This document shows positions 20,148-31,115 of a stretch of 64,000 bases of DNA, in pieces. The stretch is from Candidatus Curtissbacteria bacterium (lineage in GTDB: Bacteria; Patescibacteriota; Microgenomatia; Curtissbacterales; GWA2-41-24). The stretch lies in contig JACPEV010000003.1 of the NCBI GenBank assembly GCA_016183325.1, forward strand, positions 18,000-81,999. Reading direction: 5' to 3'. The notes under the pieces are model-generated. The model made no database searches. It worked only from the letters and a program-made list of their open reading frames with translations, and was not told where the DNA came from. Within the stretch, counting starts at the first letter, position 1. Every line of letters starts with the position of its first letter. Both the position numbers and the translations under genes were made by a program.

Positions 20148-20870
20148 TTAAATTCCCGTAAAGCCTGATAAAAGTTGCGAAAAGTATCTCATGGTTGGAA
20201 TAATTACCTGATAGTTAAGTCTGGATGGCCCGACAATAGCTATTACCCCTCTGTGATTTGGCATTGTGTAGCGCGAAACAACAAATCCACAGGGTTCCAA
20301 GTACGGAACACCAAGTTCTTCACCAAAGAGGATCTTAATTTGTTCTTCAGCTGCAAGTTGATCGAAGACTTGTCTTAGCATTTCAACCTTGTCGATCATG
20401 GAAAGTACGGTTTTGGTAATATCGATGTCGTAAAATTCTGGCATATCAAGAATGTTGGCCATGCCTGCGGCATAAATGTCGTTATTTTCGTTTGAGGCGA
20501 GGGCGAGTGAGTGAGTTTGATCGGCAAGAGCTTTTGTGGTGTGGCGAAGTAGTTGGTCAAACCTGTCTTTTGCTTCTGAAAGTTCTTCTTTTATAGCAAC
20601 TTCATCTTTTAGCGATAGAGTTTTTTCTTCCATGAGCTGGTCAACGTAGAATTTCATGCCTGCTGATGTAGGAATTCTGCCGGCTGAAGTGTGCAGTTGT
20701 TTTAGATAGCCGAGGTTGGTGAGTTTGACCATTTCGTTTCTGATGGTTGCAGGCGAAACACCGAGTCCGGCTTCTTTTTCAATGGTTTCTGAACCTACTG
20801 GATCGGCAGTTTCGATGTACTTTTCGATAATTGCTCGAAGTAGATTCTTTTGGCGATCTGAAAGGTCCAT
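20148..20870 (-). CDS. hrcA: heat-inducible transcription repressor HrcA (short form)
   Basis: N-terminal winged HTH MDLSDRQKNLLRAIIEKYIETADPVGSETI. First gene of the hrcA-grpE-dnaK cluster. A CIRCE element lies just upstream. Confidence 0.85.
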   Translation of the reverse strand: MDLSDRQKNLLRAIIEKYIETADPVGSETIEKEAGLGVSPATIRNEMVKLTNLGYLKQLHTSAGRIPTSAGMKFYVDQLMEEKTLSLKDEVAIKEELSEAKDRFDQLLRHTTKALADQTHSLALASNENNDIYAAGMANILDMPEFYDIDITKTVLSMIDKVEMLRQVFDQLAAEEQIKILFGEELGVPYLEPCGFVVSRYTMPNHRGVIAIVGPSRLNYQVIIPTMRYFSQLLSGFTGI

Positions 20871-21033: not shown

Positions 21034-21588
21034 CTAGACTCCAAAATATTCGAGAATATAATTTTTACCATCTGATCTCATTTTGGATTTGTGGATTTTG
21101 AGATTTTTCTTTTTCTTGAGAAAAAAGGTCTCGATCATTCTGTAGTCGCTGGGCACAGCATGAACTTTTATCTTTGGCAGTTCTTTTTTAGTAAACCATC
21201 TGACTTCACCTTCATTTTTAGTTTGGGCAGTATTCTCTTGGGCTCTTGTTTCGCAAACCCAGATCATAAAATGACCAATTTTTGATTTTCCCTTATAAAG
21301 AATCTCCTCGACCGCACCTCGAAGGGCAATAAATTTGATATCAAGACTGCTTTCTTCTTTTATTTCACGAATAATTGCTTCTTCAATCGTTTCGCCGTAT
21401 TCCATTTTGCCGCCCGGCAAACACCAAAGTCCAAAGTACGGCTCCTTGATTCTTTTGATCAGAAGAAATTTATCTTTATAAATAACCGGGGAAGCAACTA
21501 TGTTTAGGATTTGATTCATGGCAATTTCCACAATACCATGATACAATTGTATTGTATGGATTATATCACTACTAATGTTAGGTTTCAT
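21034..21588 (-). CDS. NUDIX hydrolase
   Basis: NUDIX box GGKMEYGETIEEAIIREIKEESSL. 184 aa. Its N-terminal coding segment is duplicated in the chimera at 26961-27254. Confidence 0.8.
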   Translation of the reverse strand: MKPNISSDIIHTIQLYHGIVEIAMNQILNIVASPVIYKDKFLLIKRIKEPYFGLWCLPGGKMEYGETIEEAIIREIKEESSLDIKFIALRGAVEEILYKGKSKIGHFMIWVCETRAQENTAQTKNEGEVRWFTKKELPKIKVHAVPSDYRMIETFFLKKKKNLKIHKSKMRSDGKNYILEYFGV

Positions 21589-22226: not shown

Positions 22227-22282
22227 AGCTATATCATCCCCGAGGGCGTGAAGTTATTCGGCGTTTTTTTAAATATTCGAGG

Positions 22283-22318
22283 CTAAATACTCTAATACTC
22301 TAGAGTATTAGAGTAATA
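22283..22318. repeat. cassette-boundary palindrome, copy 1 (TACTCTAATACTCTAGAGTATTAGAGTA)
   Basis: 28 bp perfect palindrome preceded by ggctaaa. Copies 2-5 lie at about 24975-25035, 26300-26355, 27262-27327 and 28429-28494. Confidence 0.8.
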
Positions 22319-22357
22319 AAGATAATCATAAAATTACAAAAGCTAGATTTCTTCATT

Positions 22358-22431
22358 ATCCCGACTCGCCAAGCTATTCCAAACCCGGTTCGGAATACGT
22401 TGGCGAGTAAGGTGAGTTCTGCAATTTCTGA
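22358..22431. repeat. conserved ~75 bp hairpin-forming element, copy 1
   Basis: cgactcgccaagctattccaaacccggttcggaatacgttggcgagtaaggtgagttctgcaatttctga. A second copy (about 85% identical) lies at 28513-28593. Both sit just inside the outermost cassette palindromes. Confidence 0.6.
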
Positions 22432-22522: not shown

Positions 22523-22819
22523 TTGGAAATTTTCCTCCGCTTCTTTTGGAGTTCTGGCGCCGGGAATTATTGCCGCAACTGCAGAATGGACTTCTCCGCT
22601 TCAGTGTCGGCAGGGCGAGGGCCAAAAAACGAAAGACCCCAGACAAAGAATACCGGGGTCGGCGCGGGTTGGCACGCTAGTTTCTCCGCGGCTTCGGCGG
22701 CTGCGTTTTCCTCAGCTCGGGGCCGAGGACGATGTCGGAGGGCTGTACGAGCCATTAGGCACCCCTTGAACAAAGGATGCCCCTATTATAGGCTTTTCGA
22801 ATGAACCGTCAAGAAGCTA

Positions 22820-23494
22820 CTAAGGGATTTGTTGTGATTTACGCCTCTGGCGTTGGTTTGTGCCGACGTAGTGCTCCACAGCGTTTCGATCCAAGAACCA
22901 TTGCAGCCCGCGCTTCACAGCCGGCAACTTACGGCGTCGTATCAGATAGGCGACGTTGGTGGGGTGACAGCCGAGGATTTCAGCTGCCTCCGCGATCGTA
23001 ACCGTCGCAGAGGGAGACGCGTCTGTTAGCTCCTTCAGCGAAGCGGCATCTACGACGTTATGGAGCTCCTCGACCGCTCCGTTCGTAAAGATGTTGACTC
23101 TTGTGCGTCGCCGATTGGCATTGCACTCAATGGAAAGAACTGCCTGAGCATGCTTAGGCTGGTAACCTGCCGCTATTCTATCTACCGTGTACTCGCGCGA
23201 TTGAGGGTCAAAGGTGCCGGCAATAAACTGTAGCCTGACAAGCCTATCATCAGGATGCACTTGTACGTGAACGGGCGGATCCCCTTCGTTGCCTAGCCTC
23301 CAAACGTAGCCCTTCCCAAAGGACGGATGCTCAAATGCTTCGGCGTCTGTCCCTAATACTGCGTTCACTGCCTCTACCAGAAACGGCTCTCCAGGCCGCC
23401 ACAAACAATGGAGTCCGTCGGTTTCACGCTCTGCAACGGTCGGGTCGGCCGTAACGGAGCTGCGGGTGCCTGCTATTCTCTCCTGGCTGCTCAC
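22820..23494 (-). CDS. protein with C-terminal excisionase/Xis-type HTH DNA-binding domain (on foreign GC-rich segment)
   Basis: C-terminus VTIAEAAEILGCHPTNVAYLIRRRKLPAVKRG matches HTH_17/excisionase-family helices. High-GC codon usage is unlike the rest of the window. Confidence 0.5.
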   Translation of the reverse strand: MSSQERIAGTRSSVTADPTVAERETDGLHCLWRPGEPFLVEAVNAVLGTDAEAFEHPSFGKGYVWRLGNEGDPPVHVQVHPDDRLVRLQFIAGTFDPQSREYTVDRIAAGYQPKHAQAVLSIECNANRRRTRVNIFTNGAVEELHNVVDAASLKELTDASPSATVTIAEAAEILGCHPTNVAYLIRRRKLPAVKRGLQWFLDRNAVEHYVGTNQRQRRKSQQIP

Positions 23495-23616
23495 AACTCG
23501 TATGATTATACCATGGCGCCGTGTTAGTAACGGTAACGAAAGGTGGGATGAAACGGCGGGGGGAGTGACACGCTCCTAAATTTCGTGTAACATGCACATG
23601 TAACGCGGATCAGGTA

Positions 23617-23856
23617 GTGTTTGGATCGGAGACCCTCATGATCCCTCGGGTGACCATCGACGACATCGCCAGCGACACGAGGCTCTCCCGCAAGACCGTG
23701 TCCCTAGCTTTGCGTCACGACCAATCTGTTGCTGCTGCAACACTCCGTCGGGTCCTAGACGCGGCTGAGCGTCTCGGCTATACACGTAGCCGAGCCGAAA
23801 CGGCGCTCCTTGGGGTGGTGGTCCCTTACTTCAATCATCCGTTCTACTCCGAGTAA
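23617..23856 (+). pseudogene. LacI-family transcriptional regulator, N-terminal HTH fragment only
   Basis: VTIDDIASDTRLSRKTVSLALRHDQSVAAATLRRVLDAAERLGYTRSRAETALLGVVVPYFNHPFYSE is the canonical LacI HTH plus the first strand of the sugar-binding domain. It stops after 79 aa at the edge of the GC-rich segment. Confidence 0.6.
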
Positions 23857-23870
23857 TGTTTCGGCTTGTC

Positions 23871-24078
23871 CGAGCGCGTACTTTGGGGCGGTATCGAAAT
23901 AATTAACTCCCAATTTTAAAGCTGTTTTGACTTTACCAATGGTTGCGGCTTCATCCGGGTTCTCAAAATCCAAAAGGCCCGTTCCTAGGCCAAGGCGGGT
24001 AACAAAAACTCCGGTTTGACCAATTTCTACTTTTTGGGTGGGGACGAAAGAGGATTTAGGTCTTTCCATACCGAGCAA
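23871..24078 (-). pseudogene. aldo/keto reductase N-terminal fragment (gene body replaced by the GC-rich insert)
   Basis: MERPKSSFVPTQKVEIGQTGVFVTRLGLGTGLL...LKLGVNYFDTAPKYALGQAETLLG matches AKR N-terminal consensus (LGLG...G.N.FDTA..YG.G.SE.LLG). The frame then runs into foreign GC-rich DNA. Confidence 0.55.
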
Positions 24079-24175
24079 TTATACATCAGGAAGGTTTTTA
24101 AATTTTTAAAACGGTTAAGAATGCTTCTTAGGAGTTGTCCCTCTCACTTTAAAGCTTCGGAGGGCAAGCGACTTA

Positions 24176-24592: not shown

Positions 24593-24992
24593 TTAGAAAA
24601 CGCTCCAGCCTCTTTTCTTCTGCTTTTGTTAATGTAGTGGTTCTCTTATCCTTACCGTACTTGGAAGATTTTTCTCCGTAAAGATAACTATATAAATTAG
24701 TAGAAAGATCCTTGGGGCCATGGCCTGCATTAGCAGCTAATCTCAAAAGGACGGCCCCAGGATTTTCCTTTTTTCGTTTTTCAATATTAAGACTTTTTTC
24801 CAGAATATTCCTGACAACTTCGGCTGTGGTTTTGCCATGCCTGCGGGCTTCGATTACGAGTTCCCTTTCAATTTCCGGAGTTAAATAAAGCTGTTTTCTG
24901 ATCATGTATACATTATACATCATACATTTATTGTAGCGTGTTGTCAAATTTTGAGCACGGCTAAGAAGGCTTCTTGGGTAATTATTAAACAT
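24564..24992 (-). CDS. vapB: ribbon-helix-helix antitoxin with C-terminal Y.YG.K tail. Likely start is an internal Met (MIRKQLYL...).
   Basis: MIRKQLYLTPEIERELVIEARRHGKTTAEVVRNILEKSL RHH. C-terminal ...LYSYLYGEKSSKYGKDKR resembles the antitoxin at 1512-1766. Overlaps the PIN gene. Confidence 0.5.
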   Translation of the reverse strand: MFNNYPRSLLSRAQNLTTRYNKCMMYNVYMIRKQLYLTPEIERELVIEARRHGKTTAEVVRNILEKSLNIEKRKKENPGAVLLRLAANAGHGPKDLSTNLYSYLYGEKSSKYGKDKRTTTLTKAEEKRLERFLNDQKTSRRR

Positions 24993-25035
24993 TCTAGGCT
25001 AAATACTCTAATGATCTAGATTAATAGAGTGAAGA
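24975..25035. repeat. cassette-boundary palindrome, copy 2
   Basis: gggtaattattaaacattctaggctaaatactctaatgatctagattaatagagtgaag. This variant has gatctagatta at the centre. It overlaps the last codons of the AAC(6')-like gene. Confidence 0.8.
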
Positions 25036-25647
25036 CTCCATTAACCAAGAATCTACTTTTTTGCCTTCGTGCTGTTCGTGATTCTTGAGAATTTTGATTT
25101 TCTTGAAACCGGCTTTTTCGTAGGCTCGAATAGCTCGGGGATTATCGACATGAGGATCAGTGACAACTTTTTTGCCTTGTAGTTTTTTAAAAATGTGGTC
25201 GGTGATCATTTTAAGAACTTGTGGTCCGATACCCTTGTTCCAATATTCAACTTCTCCAATATACATATCCACCGCCCAGATGCCATTTGTATCATCCAAT
25301 TCGTAGTCTTTTGCTTTGATAACCGGATAATATTGAATGTACCCAATTTCTTTGTTGTTGTAGGAAAAAAAACATGGAACAATTTTGTTTTTGCCAAGTA
25401 CCCTTGGGCTATATTTTCTTTTGACCTTAGAAAGATATTGCGGGTTGGTACGACCGCCGTAAAATTCAAGAACTCTTTTGTCTGTTAACCATTTAGCAAT
25501 CTGCCTGTAATCGGATTCTTTATCCTCTATTTGCCGAATTTTTAACTGGCCTTTTTTGAGAAGCATATAAACGGTTAGTTCAAATCGTATTTTCCTATAA
25601 TTTTTGTTGAGCTTGGGTGACATACTGAATTTGTGGTAATAAGACAA
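25021..25647 (-). CDS. GNAT N-acetyltransferase closely resembling aminoglycoside 6'-N-acetyltransferase AAC(6')-Ie. Likely start is an internal Met (MLLKKGQ...).
   Basis: KWLTDKRVLEFYGG, YNNKEIGYIQYY, DMYIGEVEYWNKGIGP, TDPHVDNPRAIRAYEKAGFKKI and HEQHEGKKVDSWLME align motif-for-motif with the AAC(6')-Ie domain of the staphylococcal/enterococcal AAC(6')-APH(2'') enzyme. The alignment is from memory. Confidence 0.7.
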   Translation of the reverse strand: MSYYHKFSMSPKLNKNYRKIRFELTVYMLLKKGQLKIRQIEDKESDYRQIAKWLTDKRVLEFYGGRTNPQYLSKVKRKYSPRVLGKNKIVPCFFSYNNKEIGYIQYYPVIKAKDYELDDTNGIWAVDMYIGEVEYWNKGIGPQVLKMITDHIFKKLQGKKVVTDPHVDNPRAIRAYEKAGFKKIKILKNHEQHEGKKVDSWLMESSLY

Positions 25648-26267
25648 ATTGTCCTGACCGATAACTTCCCAACTTCAACAACTTTTAACTTTTTAATTTT
25701 TTCTAAGAAAAGATTGCTTGGATGGGTAATATATCGGCAGACCGTAATGTTACCGAAAAAGATTTCATCCGATTCGTAACTTTTATTGTCTGGAACGCTT
25801 GCTTTGATTAAATTTTTTCTTAAATCTAGAACTAAATCTTTTAATGAATCATTTGAATAACATCTGATTCCAAGACTGGTTGGGAGTTCGAATAAACCTT
25901 TCACTGTGAATTCTAATTCTTTATGCTTCGGGATTATTTGATCAAAAGCTGTTTTTGCTTTTTCGACGTCCTCATCTGTAAATAACGGTGGATCACTAAT
26001 CGTTCGAATATTTTGAATAGTTAAATGAAGGCTTCGTGGTAGGTAAAAATATTGATTACTGTCTGCTTCTCTGAGAGGTTCAATAATTTTGGAAACAATT
26101 ATTTTTTGAAGATTTTCGGGAATAAAAATAACACTGGTTAAACCAATGCGGTTATCATTTGCATAATCTGCGACAGGTTCAACTATAGTTGTAGGTATTT
26201 TACCTTGTTTAAACTTTCCCTCAAGTTTTTCAAAAAGTTCAAATTGCTTCTTTTGATACGAAATCAT
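25575..26267 (-). CDS. 2H phosphoesterase superfamily protein (LigT / 2',3'-cyclic phosphodiesterase-like)
   Basis: Two H-x-[TS]-x motifs (SLHLTIQN and YITHPSNL) spaced as in LigT/2H phosphoesterases. Overlaps the downstream AAC(6')-like gene by 73 nt. Confidence 0.45.
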   Translation of the reverse strand: MISYQKKQFELFEKLEGKFKQGKIPTTIVEPVADYANDNRIGLTSVIFIPENLQKIIVSKIIEPLREADSNQYFYLPRSLHLTIQNIRTISDPPLFTDEDVEKAKTAFDQIIPKHKELEFTVKGLFELPTSLGIRCYSNDSLKDLVLDLRKNLIKASVPDNKSYESDEIFFGNITVCRYITHPSNLFLEKIKKLKVVEVGKLSVRTICLITTNSVCHPSSTKIIGKYDLN

Positions 26268-26299
26268 GAGGAAATTATATCTTAAGCATCGCCAGAAAG

Positions 26300-26355
26300 A
26301 ATTATTGGAGAATTCCTAAGCTAAATACTCTAATACTCTAGAGTAATAGAGTAAA
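26300..26355. repeat. cassette-boundary palindrome, copy 3
   Basis: gaattattggagaattcctaagctaaatactctaatactctagagtaatagagtaaag. Confidence 0.8.
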
Positions 26356-26371
26356 GAATCCAAGCACTTAA

Positions 26372-26947
26372 TTATGCGAACGAAATGGCAAGGACTATGA
26401 GCATACTTGCAGCAAAGCCGAGCGCTAGTTCTGCCAGAGAATGATGCTCGAGTTGCATGCGAGCCCAACTGATAACTCCCACTAGCGGAAGCGCAATAGC
26501 GTATTGTCGGCCATAGACCACAACAAGTCCGATAACTACGGCCGCAAATACGGCTACATGAAGGCTTGCCTTGATATACAAGTTGAGAATGGTAAAGGCG
26601 AACAAACCAGCTAGCATCATGTAAACAATAAGGCTGAGGTTTTGTGTGAATGACAGGGCATTCATTTCAATGATAAGTATCGGGGTTAGTACCGAAGCAA
26701 CCACAAACAAATAAATCCGCCTTTCCTTACGTTGCGTGACAAAGAGATCGGAGATTATGCCCATCTTCGACATTACAATCTGACATACAATGGGGATCAT
26801 AATAGTTGGAAAGACCAAAGCAATGATCGCAATAATAGCAGAGAAAAAGCTGAGACCTTCGTTATGGATTGCAACTAGTAGCCCACAGAAGCCAACAATT
26901 AATGGGTGAGAAATTAGTGATATTGCTAATGCAATGCGTCTTTGCAT
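26372..26947 (-). CDS. polytopic membrane protein, PAP2-like acid phosphatase motifs
   Basis: Six hydrophobic segments. KASLHVA (PSGH-like) and SWARMQLEHHSLAELALG (SRxxxxxHxxxD-like) resemble PAP2 motifs 2 and 3. Confidence 0.4.
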   Translation of the reverse strand: MQRRIALAISLISHPLIVGFCGLLVAIHNEGLSFFSAIIAIIALVFPTIMIPIVCQIVMSKMGIISDLFVTQRKERRIYLFVVASVLTPILIIEMNALSFTQNLSLIVYMMLAGLFAFTILNLYIKASLHVAVFAAVVIGLVVVYGRQYAIALPLVGVISWARMQLEHHSLAELALGFAASMLIVLAISFA

Positions 26948-26960
26948 TGGGTTTATTTCT

Positions 26961-27254
26961 TTAAATTTTTAATACAGCCAAAAACGCTTCCTGGGGAATA
27001 TCAACTTGGCCAAAGCGGCGCATTCTCTTTTTGCCTTTTTTCTGCTTCTCAAGTAGTTTCATTTTGCGGGTGACGTCGCCGCCGTAGAGTTTGGCGGTGA
27101 CGTCTTTGCGGTACGAGGCGATTGTTTCTCGGGCGATGATTTTGCCGCCCGGCAAACACCAAAGTCCAAAGTACGGCTCCTTGATTCTTTTGATCAGAAG
27201 AAATTTATCTTTATAAATAACCGGGGAAGCAACTATGTTTAAAATTTTGTCCAC
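26961..27254 (-). pseudogene. chimeric gene fragment: NUDIX 5' end fused to lepA 3' end
   Basis: 27140-27250 is near-identical to nudix 21420-21540 ([27 protein letters not shown]). 26961-27140 is about 90% identical to the lepA 3' end 29244-29420 ([59 protein letters not shown]). The junction is at shared microhomology gattttgcc(g)cc. Confidence 0.7.
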
Positions 27255-27261
27255 AAAGTAT

Positions 27262-27327
27262 GGGAGAATTATATCCTACGGGCAATTTCGAATCTAAATA
27301 CTCTAATGATCTAGATTATTAGAGTGA
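27262..27327. repeat. cassette-boundary palindrome, copy 4
   Basis: gggagaattatatcctacgggcaatttcgaatctaaatactctaatgatctagattattagagtgag. Confidence 0.8.
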
Positions 27328-27860
27328 GATTTAATTGATTTTTTTAAAATTAAATCAAGATTTGAATCTTTGATGATTTTGTCTAAATAAGGTAGAAATT
27401 TTTGCTTGTAGAAATTGAATTCTTTTTCGGATTCTTTTGAATTTTTGGTCGTTTCAATCTCGAAAATTTTGCCGACAGTTAATATATTATCTAGATTGAA
27501 GATTGTATTGCCTTTTTTCCAAAGCTCGCGTTTTTTGTAAACAGTAGCTTTAATTCCTAAAACTTTTTTCAGATATGGTAAAAGTTTTTTATCTTTTACA
27601 GAAAGTAGGCTTACTTTTGCTTGGTTGCTTTTGTTTTCTTGAAAAGCTCTTCTTTTGTAATAAATTATGGTTTGTTTCCCTTTCTGTATTCTTAATTTAA
27701 GTCTTGGATGGATCTTGATATCCGATTGAGGTAAGTTGAAAAAGTAATCTTTTTGAAAAAAAGTTCCAACTTTCTTGGCATTTAACTCTTTTAGAATTTT
27801 CCTAATTGGAGAAAAATCGTTGCAAAAATACTTCAGCTCGAGATTAACTTTATTTTGCAT
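27303..27860 (-). CDS. CYTH-domain protein (triphosphate tunnel metalloenzyme / class IV adenylate cyclase-like)
   Basis: N-terminal VNLELKYF (ExExK), spaced basic residues (KLRIQKGK, IIYYKRR) and FEIETT acidic motif typical of CYTH/CyaB folds. Directly follows the GNAT gene with a 0 nt gap. Confidence 0.5.
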   Translation of the reverse strand: MQNKVNLELKYFCNDFSPIRKILKELNAKKVGTFFQKDYFFNLPQSDIKIHPRLKLRIQKGKQTIIYYKRRAFQENKSNQAKVSLLSVKDKKLLPYLKKVLGIKATVYKKRELWKKGNTIFNLDNILTVGKIFEIETTKNSKESEKEFNFYKQKFLPYLDKIIKDSNLDLILKKSIKSHSNNLDH

Positions 27861-28421
27861 CTAGAAAGTCAGATTTTGGTACATTAATATTTGATCGATA
27901 AATTTGTCCCGGTGGACTATTCCTTTTGGAAGCACACCATATTTTTTAAACCCGAAGTTTTTATACATTTCAATCGCTATATTATTGTTTGCATAGACAA
28001 CTAGCGTGACAATTTTTAGATTGAAGAGATTTTTCCCTGCTTCTTCTAAAATTTTTTCTGTTAAAAGTTTCCCGATGCCTTGATTTCTAAATTGTTTGGC
28101 CACCGAAATGCCAAAATCACCAACATGTGTTTCAACTCTTTCTCTAAGTGTTATGTTTGCGATCCCAATTAAGGCCTTTTGGGAGTAGGCCAAGATGTGA
28201 ATATCTTCATTTTTATTCATTTTATTAAGAACGTTATCTAAATATTTTTTTTCTTCGTCAACTGTTAGTTGTTGTCCTTGGAAACTGATATACGTACGCT
28301 CTTTTGAAAGCGTGTTGATGTAATTTAAAAGATCTTTGAGATCATTCGCTTCGGGGTAACGTAAAACAATTGGGAGACCGTTTTTAATTTTGCCTTCGAA
28401 GATAATTTGTCCTGGTTGCAT
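27861..28421 (-). CDS. GNAT family N-acetyltransferase
   Basis: Acetyl-CoA binding motif FRNQGIGKLLTEKILEEAG and C-terminal YKNFGFKKYG. 186 aa. Confidence 0.75.
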   Translation of the reverse strand: MQPGQIIFEGKIKNGLPIVLRYPEANDLKDLLNYINTLSKERTYISFQGQQLTVDEEKKYLDNVLNKMNKNEDIHILAYSQKALIGIANITLRERVETHVGDFGISVAKQFRNQGIGKLLTEKILEEAGKNLFNLKIVTLVVYANNNIAIEMYKNFGFKKYGVLPKGIVHRDKFIDQILMYQNLTF

Positions 28422-28428
28422 AAATAAG

Positions 28429-28494
28429 ATTATATCCTAAGCTGTCGCTTTAGAAGATTTCTAAGCTTAATACTCTATTACTCTAGAGTAACGG
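28429..28494. repeat. cassette-boundary palindrome, copy 5
   Basis: attatatcctaagctgtcgctttagaagatttctaagcttaatactctattactctagagtaacgg. Confidence 0.8.
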
Positions 28495-28512
28495 TAATTT
28501 GTACTTTTAGAA

Positions 28513-28593
28513 TCTCGACTCGCAGAGCTATTCCAATATTCCAAACCGGGTTTAGAATACGTTGGCGAATAAGGTTGGCTCTGCAATTTCTGA
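28513..28593. repeat. conserved ~75 bp hairpin-forming element, copy 2
   Basis: cgactcgcagagctattccaatattccaaaccgggtttagaatacgttggcgaataaggttggctctgcaatttctga. Paired with the copy at 22358-22431. Confidence 0.6.
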
Positions 28594-28670: not shown

Positions 28671-29192
28671 ATGGCTAACGTCGAACAAGACCCAAACTCA
28701 GGAGAGGCCATTATAGTTGATCCAAGATCTCGTGCTGAGTTCTGGGCTTCACAGGGTATTCCCTTTGCCACTCACGAATTTGCGATTTATGCAAATCTTG
28801 CTGAACAAGAAAGAGACTCTTTAATGACGGAGGCTCATTTGAATGCGGCTGAGAGAGCTAAAAAGTTGTCTTTGCAGGAGATAACTGACATAAAAACTGG
28901 GCCTTTTGAAACAACTCCAAAGGACGTTCAGTGGGCTGATTATTGGACCCGAAGAGTCCTAGGTATCGCTGATTATTCTGGATTTGGCTTATCAAGAAGG
29001 CAAGTTCTAACTAACCTGTTTACAAGAGACGACAAACTTGGAAACGCGGCCAGAGAGACATTTATTACTGCTTGGGAGTCTTTGGTAACCTATTTGAGAA
29101 CGGCAACAGAGCAAGCAAAACCTGAGACTCAAGCCCACTTAGAACTAGCGAAATACTTGCAACAAAGATCCGAACAAAGAGGAACTATCTAA
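28671..29192 (+). CDS. hypothetical cytoplasmic protein
   Basis: 173 aa ORF with good coding periodicity and no recognisable motif. Confidence 0.4.
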   Translation: MANVEQDPNSGEAIIVDPRSRAEFWASQGIPFATHEFAIYANLAEQERDSLMTEAHLNAAERAKKLSLQEITDIKTGPFETTPKDVQWADYWTRRVLGIADYSGFGLSRRQVLTNLFTRDDKLGNAARETFITAWESLVTYLRTATEQAKPETQAHLELAKYLQQRSEQRGTI

Positions 29193-29243: not shown

Positions 29244-31115
29244 TTATATTTTTAATACAGCTAAGAATGCCTCTTGGGGAATATCTACTTGCCCAAAACG
29301 CCTCATTCTCTTTTTGCCTTTTTTCTGCTTCTCAAGTAGTTTCATTTTGCGGGTGACGTCGCCGCCGTAGAGTTTGGCGGTGACGTCTTTGCGGTACGAG
29401 GCGATTGTTTCTCGGGCGATGATTTTGCCCGCCCCCTTCGCCGAGGCTACGGAGGCCGAGCCGATGGCCGCCTGAATCGGTATAGGAATTTGTTGGCGAG
29501 GAATGGCATCTTTTAGTTTTTCGCAAAGTTTTCGGGCAATTTCTTCCGCGCGCACTCGCGGCACTATTTGGGACAGCCCTTCTATCGGTTCGTGGTTAAC
29601 CAGAATATCAAGTTTAACAAGATCGGCCGGGCGATAGTCTGCTATTTCAAAATCTAATGAGGCATAGCCCGAGGTTTGTGACTTGAGCTGATCATAGAAG
29701 CCGATTAAAAGTTCAAGAAGGGGAATTTTCGCTTCTATTTTTAAAAGATTGCCGATTGTTTCAAAATTTTCTTGCTCTCCCCTTTTATCGGTGATAAGCT
29801 TTGACACTACTCCCGAATAAGCCTGAGGAACAAATATCGTAACGCTGGCGATGGGCTCTTTGACGTTTTTTTCAGTCGGGTCAAAATCGCCGGCTTTGTT
29901 GATCAGTTTGTCGTTAACAATGAAATTGACAGAGGGAGAAGTTGTAATGATGTCCAGATCGTATTCACGCTCAAGGCGTTCTTGGGTGATTTGAGCATGC
30001 AAAAGTCCTAAAAAACCAATTCTGAATCCTTGGCCAAGACTGATGGAAGATTCTGTGGTGAAGCTAAGCGATGAATCATTTAGTTTGAGTTTTTCGAGTG
30101 CATCTTTGAGTTTGACAAGGTCTTTGGGGTCTGAGGGGTAAAATGACAGGAAAACAACAGGTTTGGCCGCTTGATAACCAGGAAGTGGTTGAGCCGGCGA
30201 TTTGGGATCGGTGATAGTATCTCCAACTTTTACTTTTGATAAATCTTTAAGGTTAGTTACAACAAAGGCGATCTCCCCGCTGGTTACGTTTTCGACGAAG
30301 TGGGGTTTGGGGGTAAGATAACCTATTTGCAAAATGGTGGCCTTGGCATTCGGGTTGGCCAAAAATAAAATCCGGTCCCCCACATTTATTCTGCCTCCAA
30401 AGACACGGACCGTTGCAACGACACCTTTGTAAGGGTCTAGGGAAGAATCGAAGATTAGTGCTTGGGGTTTGCTCACCCCCGGGGAGCCAGAGCTCACCCC
30501 GGGGGTGTTGCCTGGCGCAGGAATGCGGTCAATTATTGCACGAATAACTGCTTCGACACCCTCGCCGGTTCTGGCGGAGACTTTGATGATTTCTTTTTCG
30601 GAAAATCCAAGAGAGACCAGTTCTTGTGCCGTCTTTTCAATTTGAGCTTGTGGCAAATCAATTTTGTTAATCACCGGAATAATAGTTAAATTGGCTTCAA
30701 GGGCAAGATTAAAATTGGCCAAAGTTTGAGCTTGGATTCCCTGAGTTGCATCGACTACCAGAACTGCGCCTTCTACAGAAGCAAGTGATCGTGAAACTTC
30801 GTAGGAAAAGTCGACGTGGCCGGGAGTATCGATCAAATTCAAAACAAAGTTTTGAATTTGAGGTGAATCGTTAATGGTTAATGGTTCATCGGGAGATTCT
30901 TTTTCAATACGATTAACGATAAACGATGAACGATACACTAATCGTATGGCTTTCAACTTAATGGTGATGCCGTGTTCGCGCTCAAGCTCTAGGCTGTCGA
31001 GAAGTTGTTCTGGGTGATTTTGATCAACTGCACCGCAGATTTCCATGATACGGTCGGCAAGAGTCGATTTACCGTGGTCGACGTGGGCGATGAGGGCAAA
31101 ATTACGAATTTCCAT
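29244..31115 (-). CDS. lepA: elongation factor 4 (LepA), with two short in-frame insertions
   Basis: NFALIAHVDHGKSTLADR, DTPGHVDFSYEV, NKIDLP, and C-terminal LepA domain ending ...[24 protein letters not shown]. Inserts: an about 25 aa segment encoded by TTAACGAT-type repeats (30868-30960) and PAPGNTPGVSSGSPGVS encoded by a GC-rich palindrome (30471-30508). Confidence 0.9.
   Translation of the reverse strand: MEIRNFALIAHVDHGKSTLADRIMEICGAVDQNHPEQLLDSLELEREHGITIKLKAIRLVYRSSFIVNRIEKESPDEPLTINDSPQIQNFVLNLIDTPGHVDFSYEVSRSLASVEGAVLVVDATQGIQAQTLANFNLALEANLTIIPVINKIDLPQAQIEKTAQELVSLGFSEKEIIKVSARTGEGVEAVIRAIIDRIPAPGNTPGVSSGSPGVSKPQALIFDSSLDPYKGVVATVRVFGGRINVGDRILFLANPNAKATILQIGYLTPKPHFVENVTSGEIAFVVTNLKDLSKVKVGDTITDPKSPAQPLPGYQAAKPVVFLSFYPSDPKDLVKLKDALEKLKLNDSSLSFTTESSISLGQGFRIGFLGLLHAQITQERLEREYDLDIITTSPSVNFIVNDKLINKAGDFDPTEKNVKEPIASVTIFVPQAYSGVVSKLITDKRGEQENFETIGNLLKIEAKIPLLELLIGFYDQLKSQTSGYASLDFEIADYRPADLVKLDILVNHEPIEGLSQIVPRVRAEEIARKLCEKLKDAIPRQQIPIPIQAAIGSASVASAKGAGKIIARETIASYRKDVTAKLYGGDVTRKMKLLEKQKKGKKRMRRFGQVDIPQEAFLAVLKI

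Follow-up and report, generated by a model that had tools for sequence, protein, structure and literature searches.

Do two genes that stand side by side in a variable part of a bacterial chromosome belong together? The question is raised by a 64-kb stretch of DNA (hereafter the window) from Candidatus Curtissbacteria, a small-genome groundwater bacterium of the candidate phyla radiation (CPR), in which a gene encoding a protein with the 2H (LigT/ThpR-like) fold is followed by a gene encoding a GNAT acetyltransferase similar to the aminoglycoside 6'-N-acetyltransferases, AAC(6'). The original prediction, made from the sequence, had proposed that the two form one cassette, either conferring antibiotic resistance or acting as an acetyltransferase toxin with its counter-enzyme. 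Here, we consider it rather probable that they are unrelated accessory genes, adjacent only in the window genome and housed in the variable interval between lepA and hrcA, the GNAT being of the AAC(6') type and the 2H protein being atypical.

Both open reading frames (ORFs) are real genes on the reverse strand. The 2H-fold protein (230 amino acids, ATG start, positions 25575 to 26267) was recognised from its AlphaFold model, Foldseek and a family profile. The GNAT (181 amino acids, 25021 to 25566, ATG at 25566) is related by homology to the AAC(6')-Ie/Im/Ib type (sub-family C). At its longest, the GNAT ORF opens at a TTG codon at 25647 and carries 27 extra residues, for which no homologue has a counterpart. 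The product starting at ATG 25566 is identical, over its full length, to a 181-amino-acid GNAT family N-acetyltransferase of Candidatus Curtissbacteria bacterium at NCBI (P0092; 100% identity, 100% coverage), and its alignment with AAC(6')-Ie opens at residue 8 in both proteins. Taken together, these observations favour ATG 25566 as the start codon, and the TTG start was rejected. With this start the two genes do not overlap: as read from the sequence, an 8-nt spacer (25567 to 25574) separates the 2H stop codon (25575 to 25577) from the GNAT ATG, and the 73-nt overlap originally described was an artefact of the wrong start codon. The CPR context that had been suspected is borne out by the NCBI records of the 2H protein (P0001) and the GNAT, both of which belong to Candidatus Curtissbacteria. 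In the window the two genes are probably co-transcribed.

We surveyed the neighbourhood of the 2H-like gene at 48 genome loci (flanks up to 6 kb) and at L001, one of our comparison loci from other genomes (L001, L002, L051, L052, L064, L073 and L087). A gene for an AAC-like GNAT adjoins the 2H gene at none of these 49 loci, and lies within 6 kb of it at only one (L001, four genes away). Clustering of all neighbours revealed no conserved partner of the 2H gene, the commonest being NUDIX, found at 6 loci. Among the complete lepA-hrcA intervals, those of L052 and L087 contain the GNAT without 2H, and those of L002 and L064 contain 2H or CYTH without the GNAT. The 2H and GNAT genes are thus recurrent, independent residents of the lepA-hrcA interval in Curtissbacteria-like genomes, and, since they recur there independently, their adjacency in the window is the product of local rearrangement.

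The pair is flanked by copies of a 45-70 bp repeat, present five times in the window (22267-22336, 24983-25052, 26305-26374, 27278-27347 and 28450-28491) and nowhere else in its 64 kb. The core of the repeat is a palindrome of 26-28 bp, ACTCTAAT-N10-(A/T)TTAGAGT, in which one position at the centre varies compensatorily between copies. Copy 3 (palindrome at 26326-26353) lies between a membrane-protein gene and the 2H gene, and copy 2 (palindrome at 25004-25030) overlaps the GNAT stop codon (25021-25023). Related lepA-hrcA loci lack the repeat. The palindrome was found in 32 metagenome stretches (L055-L086), in seven of which its position coincides exactly with the start of a gene of the Trp-repressor family (YerC-like); other copies sit at gene 3' ends or between genes that converge. 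It is a lineage-wide intergenic element, be it an operator, a terminator or a repetitive extragenic palindromic (REP)-like sequence, and because it occurs in many unrelated contexts it is no marker of a mobile 2H-GNAT cassette. A reading of the palindrome as a CIRCE/HrcA operator was set aside, as its half-sites seem to be arranged unlike those of the CIRCE consensus. RNA folding of the repeats was only weakly better than that of shuffled sequence (z from -0.7 to -2.4).

The similarity of the GNAT to AAC(6') enzymes, which the original prediction had read from shared motif blocks, was confirmed by sequence and profile searches. A phmmer search of PDB sequences returned the AAC(6')-Ie domain (4QC6, E 5.7e-38, residues 8-177), AAC(6')-Im (6BFF, E 8.8e-33) and AAC(6')-Ib (1V0C and 2PR8, about 1e-20), with identities of ~43%, 39% and ~29-30%, respectively. 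The blocks KWLTDxRVLEFYGG, IGYxQxY, (Y/F)IGExxYWxKGIG, DPHxxNPRAIRAYxKxGF and HExHEGKK are all present in the alignments, and the similarity is far beyond chance. The top Pfam family is Acetyltransf_8 (1.3e-19), and the eleven best NCBIfam models are all AAC(6') models, RimI reaching just 23 bits. The scores are 141.3 bits for AAC_6p_Ie_fam (NF033693), against a cut-off of 340, and 130.7 bits for AAC(6')-Ie (NF000507), against a cut-off of 450.

The structures of AAC(6')-Im and AAC(6')-Ie with kanamycin (PMC5722643) allow the substrate site to be compared residue by residue. In these enzymes Tyr34 stacks on ring A and Trp54 on ring C of the antibiotic, Glu/Asp85 and Asp136 are part of an acidic pocket, His165 makes a contact via water, and Asp99 orients N6' for attack on acetyl-coenzyme A (acetyl-CoA). 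The window GNAT keeps the equivalents of Tyr34, Asp85, Asp99, Asp136 and His165; Asp99, which corresponds to Asp105 in AAC(6')-Ib, and Asp136 are invariant across all three clades of the tree described below. The position of Trp54 is occupied by Val in the window GNAT and by Ile or Val in its clade, and AAC(6')-Ib also has Val there. The loop at this position is two residues longer than in AAC(6')-Ie and aligns without gaps to that of AAC(6')-Ib. Positions 34 and 35 vary inside the clade. Like AAC(6')-Ie and AAC(6')-Im, the window GNAT is a protein of ~180 amino acids that can be aligned with them end to end, shares all the blocks quoted above and retains the YWxKGIG CoA-binding loop along with the five substrate-site residues; unlike AAC(6')-Ie/APH(2'')-Ia, which is bifunctional, it is monofunctional, chromosomal and encoded in a CPR genome. 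With AAC(6')-Ib it has in common the monomeric sub-family, the catalytic Asp, the Asp of the TDP motif and the length of the alpha3-beta2 loop, but it differs in its low overall identity and in the HExHEGKK C-terminal hairpin region, which it shares with AAC(6')-Ie and AAC(6')-Im and which AAC(6')-Ib lacks.

A neighbour-joining tree of 93 homologues and the aligned parts of AAC(6')-Ie, -Im and -Ib (100 bootstraps, capped distance) placed the window GNAT in a clade of 16 sequences, whose members are 52-64% identical to it. This exact clade was recovered in 79 of 100 bootstraps and stood apart from AAC(6')-Ie, -Im and -Ib in 98, and AAC(6')-Ie grouped with AAC(6')-Im to the exclusion of the window GNAT in all 100. 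Judged from its sequence, the GNAT can best be regarded as a further, putative member of the AAC(6') sub-family C type that falls outside the named Ie/Im clade, and it appears as a chromosomal, lineage-specific representative of the AAC(6')-Ie/Im/Ib type GNATs.

Against this background the alternatives can be weighed. One is that the 2H protein and the GNAT constitute one functional two-gene cassette, for resistance or for a toxin and its counter-enzyme, which moves as a unit; for this speak the 8-nt distance on the same strand, the bracketing of the pair by two copies of the locus-specific palindromic repeat 1322 nt apart, and the setting in a variable region of low GC (35%), where toxin-antitoxin genes and lepA 3'-end relics are found too. 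Yet none of the 49 further 2H loci shows the pairing, a 2H gene is missing from the GNAT-clade loci L051, L052 and L087, and the palindrome is a widespread intergenic element in many unrelated contexts and no cassette recombination site. As read from its sequence, the flanking palindrome is devoid of the RYYYAAC/GTTRRRY cores of attC, and an integron-like cassette array with attC-like repeats was rejected on the grounds that the palindrome is missing at related loci and common elsewhere, and that no recombinase was found. The search for an integrase or recombinase in the window was a limited test, negative with phmmer and one tyrosine and one serine recombinase as probes. PADLOC defence-system models gave no match in the window either. 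As to a toxin, none of the Pfam or NCBIfam matches of the GNAT is a tRNA-acetylating family of the TacT/AtaT kind; the gene upstream of it encodes the 2H protein, not an RHH (DUF1778-type) antitoxin, and the RHH protein encoded downstream pairs with a PIN toxin. The neighbourhood survey largely refutes the cassette or module originally envisaged, and we regard it as very improbable. Still less credible, to the point of being negligible, is a recent acquisition of the GNAT from a resistance plasmid or transposon of Firmicutes type with an aac(6')-Ie or aac(6')-Im gene on it. It is true that the top characterised matches are the plasmid-borne AAC(6')-Ie-APH(2'')-Ia enzymes of Staphylococcus and Enterococcus, and the family had been taken as one otherwise known from Firmicutes plasmids and transposons; many of its homologues turned out to be environmental and chromosomal. 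A search of 72,556 plasmids yielded 4,328 GNAT matches, every one below 60% identity, the best being 42% (the aac(6')-Ie-aph(2'')-Ia of S. aureus), so that a recent transfer out of Firmicutes elements is excluded. The clade of the GNAT, described above, is a separate one, the four clade relatives that were looked up (L001, L051, L052 and L087) all occupy the syntenic lepA-hrcA position, and its GC content fits the local AT-rich genome.

More serious is the possibility that the GNAT is a housekeeping acetyltransferase, whose physiological substrate would be a non-antibiotic compound, for instance a polyamine, an amino-sugar or an amine linked to a nucleotide, and which would work beside the NUDIX and NTPase house-cleaning enzymes, any activity on aminoglycosides being incidental. 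The operon-like order NTPase_I-T, NUDIX, GNAT, NUDIX recurs at one chromosomal position in L001, L052 and L087, with NUDIX-GNAT in L051, and overlapping start and stop codons are seen in L087. This recurrent company is the main argument for a non-antibiotic native substrate; scores under the curated AAC(6') cut-offs, the lack of conservation of Trp54 and the variation of residues 34 and 35 in the clade point the same way. On the other side, every one of the nearest relatives that have been characterised is an aminoglycoside 6'-N-acetyltransferase, the acidic residues that bind the substrate (Asp85, Asp99 and Asp136) are retained, and CPR genes are so tightly packed that adjacency is weak evidence for a shared function. 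Moreover, the members of sub-family C (Ie, Im and Ib) are reported to be monomeric and to acetylate only aminoglycosides (PMC5722643). A housekeeping role is therefore, in our judgement, unlikely, if far from negligible. Since sub-family C is reported to act on aminoglycosides alone and the residues are kept, 6'-N-acetylation of an aminoglycoside-like amino-sugar is most likely the function of the GNAT, while the odds of a true aminoglycoside resistance activity are roughly even as far as the sequence permits a judgement. In such a reaction the enzyme would, with acetyl-CoA, acetylate an aminoglycoside, or an amino-sugar closely related to one, at its 6'-amino group, with Asp99 orienting the amine and the acidic pocket (Asp85, Asp136) holding the substrate. 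Several observations weigh against the reading that we prefer, of two unrelated accessory genes with an AAC(6')-type GNAT. NUDIX/NTPase operons house the relatives of the GNAT, perhaps a hint at a substrate other than an antibiotic; the GNAT falls far under the NCBI curated naming cut-offs for AAC(6') (141 versus 340 bits for the Ie family model); it has no Trp54, an Ib-like loop standing in its place; expression of the two genes as one unit in the window genome would fit the 8-nt distance between them and the repeats on either side; and the neighbourhood survey consisted of simple phmmer matches within 6-kb flanks, some of them on short contigs.

A previous survey (PMC8651080, Maatouk et al. 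2021) had listed aac homologues (n = 1,831) in 4,062 CPR genomes, across superphyla and with low identity to bacterial resistance genes. Since AAC-like genes of CPR bacteria were already catalogued, the step forward made here is small; that survey is a catalogue, without placement of the clade of the window GNAT, residue analysis or synteny. If the GNAT does acetylate aminoglycosides, it would offer a concrete, testable case of an AAC(6') that an ultra-small CPR bacterium possesses intrinsically and inherits vertically. The Ie/Im/Ib sub-family would then extend into environmental lineages, which bears on the source of clinical aac(6') genes and on the survival of CPR bacteria near antibiotic producers.

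The partner gene encodes the more unusual of the two proteins. It has no direct sequence match in Pfam, in NCBIfam or, by phmmer, in the PDB, and 16 of 30 family members, when scanned one by one, match the Pfam family PF02834 weakly. Its AlphaFold model, computed from a 30-sequence alignment, has a predicted local distance difference test score (pLDDT) of 95.8 and a predicted TM-score (pTM) of 0.91, and adopts the two-lobed LigT/ThpR 2H fold. Foldseek returned 45 PDB matches at E <= 1e-3, exclusively 2H proteins, among them PH0099 (1VDX, E 7.7e-9), 2FYH of P. furiosus, TT0787 of Thermus, LigT/ThpR of E. coli, CPDase of Deinococcus, AKAP18, ASCC1 and Usb1; the matches of the model among viral structures were likewise 2H proteins. 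With E. coli LigT/ThpR (4QAK/5LDM) and PH0099 the fold is the same, with a Foldseek probability of 1.0 and a TM-score to the target of 0.72-0.81. Comparison of the family profile with 1VDX (E 4.6e-6) laid H81-L-T83 on the proximal HxT motif and N173-I-T175-V-C-R178 on 'HITLGR'. The predicted fold thus places the protein in the 2H superfamily. A first search retrieved 91 homologues, and an exhaustive profile search gathered 808 clusters at a threshold of E <= 1e-3, or 341 with the threshold tightened to E <= 1e-10. The 48 genome loci, which had been collected with the family pattern, belong nearly all to Patescibacteria, with a few Obscuribacterales, Chloroflexia and metagenome-assembled genomes labelled as Gammaproteobacteria.

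The identification of this gene product as a LigT-like 2H phosphoesterase, made in the original prediction, therefore stands as far as the fold is concerned, but of the two HxT motifs only the first is present, the second being NxT. The motifs of the window protein read H81-L-T83-x-x-N86 and N173-I-T175-x-x-R178, so that Asn stands where the distal catalytic His would be and the protein departs from the two His-x-Thr/Ser motifs that define the 2H superfamily. Among 140 family members, H81, T83, K162 and R178 are invariant, with one partial sequence gapped there; of the 139 residues aligned at position 173, 131 are N, 7 are S and one is G, none being H. In all 140 relatives checked the general-base His is replaced. 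In ThpR, the general acid is the proximal His43, the general base is the distal His125, and the transition state is stabilised by Arg130; each of the mutations H43A, H125A and R130A renders the enzyme inert (PMC4201822). Like ThpR, the window protein keeps the proximal HxT and the distal xxTxxR with the essential Arg. Unlike ThpR, its family has Asn in place of the distal general-base His (NxTxxR), and, when the extended ThpR motifs are considered, the Arg is invariant (R178) but Asn86 closes the proximal motif in place of Phe (HxTxxN versus HxTxxF). The family further differs from ThpR by an additional N-terminal region of ~40 residues, a helix with an invariant Gln8, and by a PDNKxY loop with the invariant Lys162. 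The alignment indicates that the acid His and the Arg have been kept and the base His lost, so that the family may use another base or may consist of binding proteins. The probable ligand of the protein is a nucleotide or RNA end that is 2'/3'-phosphorylated or carries a cyclic phosphate, and the protein would either process it by a non-canonical mechanism or do no more than bind it.

We can go one step further, tentatively, with a proposal that seems to us possible though somewhat doubtful: that the 2H family is an undescribed single-histidine branch with altered chemistry or a sensing role and, separately, that the 3' end of lepA is a serial insertion site. Such a branch may be recognised by the signature HxTxxN ... 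PDNKxY ... NxTxxR, together with the N-terminal helix and its invariant Gln, and may comprise ~340 clusters (E <= 1e-10), mostly from Patescibacteria. Within it, Lys162 may substitute for the missing general base, or the protein may be a nucleotide or RNA-end sensor. No description of the NxT variant of the 2H family was found in the literature searched, which is not proof that it is undescribed. The family provides a natural experiment on 2H catalysis.

The interval in which both genes reside extends in the window from lepA (29244-31115) to hrcA (20148-20870). In related genomes the segment between lepA and hrcA-grpE-dnaK is a variable hotspot that holds from one to about seven small genes, namely those of CYTH, 2H, NTPase_I-T, NUDIX and GNAT proteins and PIN toxin-antitoxin pairs. 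The simplest arrangement, lepA, CYTH, hrcA, is that of L064 and L073. L002 has lepA, 2H, CYTH, a 92-amino-acid ORF and hrcA, CYTH coming directly after 2H; L052 has lepA, a 139-amino-acid ORF, NTPase_I-T, GNAT, a DUF4389-like gene, NUDIX and hrcA. In L087, lepA is followed, further on, by PIN, NTPase, NUDIX, GNAT, NUDIX and hrcA, and in L051 hrcA is preceded by NUDIX, an 88-amino-acid ORF and GNAT. L001 reads lepA, 2H, NTPase, NUDIX, an 89-amino-acid ORF, GNAT, NUDIX. In the window, where the interval is expanded to 8.4 kb and has a lower GC content (33-38%), the order is lepA, a 173-amino-acid ORF on the opposite strand, a second GNAT (GNAT2), CYTH, a chimera of NUDIX and lepA (NUDIX'/lepA'), the membrane protein, 2H and GNAT; after the GNAT come a lepA relic, an RHH-PIN pair, another lepA relic, a disrupted aldo/keto reductase, a PIN pair on the opposite strand, NUDIX and hrcA.

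Three extra copies of the lepA 3' end are found in this interval. The largest (26961 to 27150, reverse strand) is a duplicate of 190 nt, 94% identical to 29244-29434 and matched by LepA_C at E 4.8e-29, and forms the upstream bound of the segment with the membrane protein, 2H and GNAT. A short relic (24941 to 24978, reverse strand), directly downstream of the GNAT and repeat copy 2, encodes ten residues followed by the stop codon. The third copy (24095-24132) encodes EAFLTVLKI and the stop codon, and the Gln codon that precedes this stretch is now a stop. These copies suggest that insertions or duplications have occurred repeatedly with the 3' end of lepA as their anchor; this end may be the serial insertion site that has built the variable lepA-hrcA interval in Curtissbacteria.

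The largest duplicate is part of a chimeric ORF (26961-27254, reverse strand), in which the first ~38 codons of a NUDIX gene are joined to the last ~60 codons of lepA. The NUDIX part matches 21404-21512, within the intact NUDIX gene (21034-21588), at 98% identity, and the junction lies at a shared ATTTTGCC microhomology. It is the junction expected from tandem duplication of a segment running from the lepA 3' end to the NUDIX 5' end.

A second gene pair occupies 27303-28421 on the reverse strand, between repeat copies 5 and 4. It consists of GNAT2 (27861-28421, reverse strand), a generic GNAT whose best matches are PseH/RimI-like, and of a CYTH/class IV adenylate-cyclase-like protein (27303-27860, reverse strand), the 3' end of which reads through the palindrome. 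About 35-45 nt past three of the repeat copies, upstream of the 2H, GNAT2 and NUDIX'/lepA' ORFs, stands a TATAAT hexamer, separated from the start codon by 6, 7 and 13 nt, respectively. The hexamer before the 2H ATG (26274 to 26279, reverse strand) is a candidate -10 element, and that before the GNAT2 ATG is at 28429-28434 on the same strand. No Shine-Dalgarno sequence precedes the 2H gene or GNAT2. The TATAAT boxes suggest leaderless transcripts, a reading that the promoter scan does not support, scans for sigma-70 promoters and intrinsic terminators having given results at chance level.

Two further predicted proteins, the 191-amino-acid membrane protein (26372-26947, reverse strand) and the product of the 173-amino-acid ORF just downstream of lepA (28671-29192, forward strand), have no Pfam, NCBIfam or PADLOC match, and a scan of the region for structured RNAs and tRNAs found none. 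An insert of ~1 kb at ~22800-23850, with 55-60% GC in a genome of ~40%, is foreign DNA. It splits the aldo/keto reductase gene, the N-terminal part of which lies at 23755-24078, and carries a LacI-type helix-turn-helix (HTH) fragment (23617-23856) and a gene for a 224-amino-acid protein with an excisionase-type HTH, an orphan that found only itself among 5.8 billion proteins. Finally, the segments 22358-22431 and 28512-28593, which adjoin repeat copies 1 and 5, are 88%-identical duplicates with a 22-bp hairpin, and look like a 3' remnant of the aldo/keto reductase gene that is present twice.

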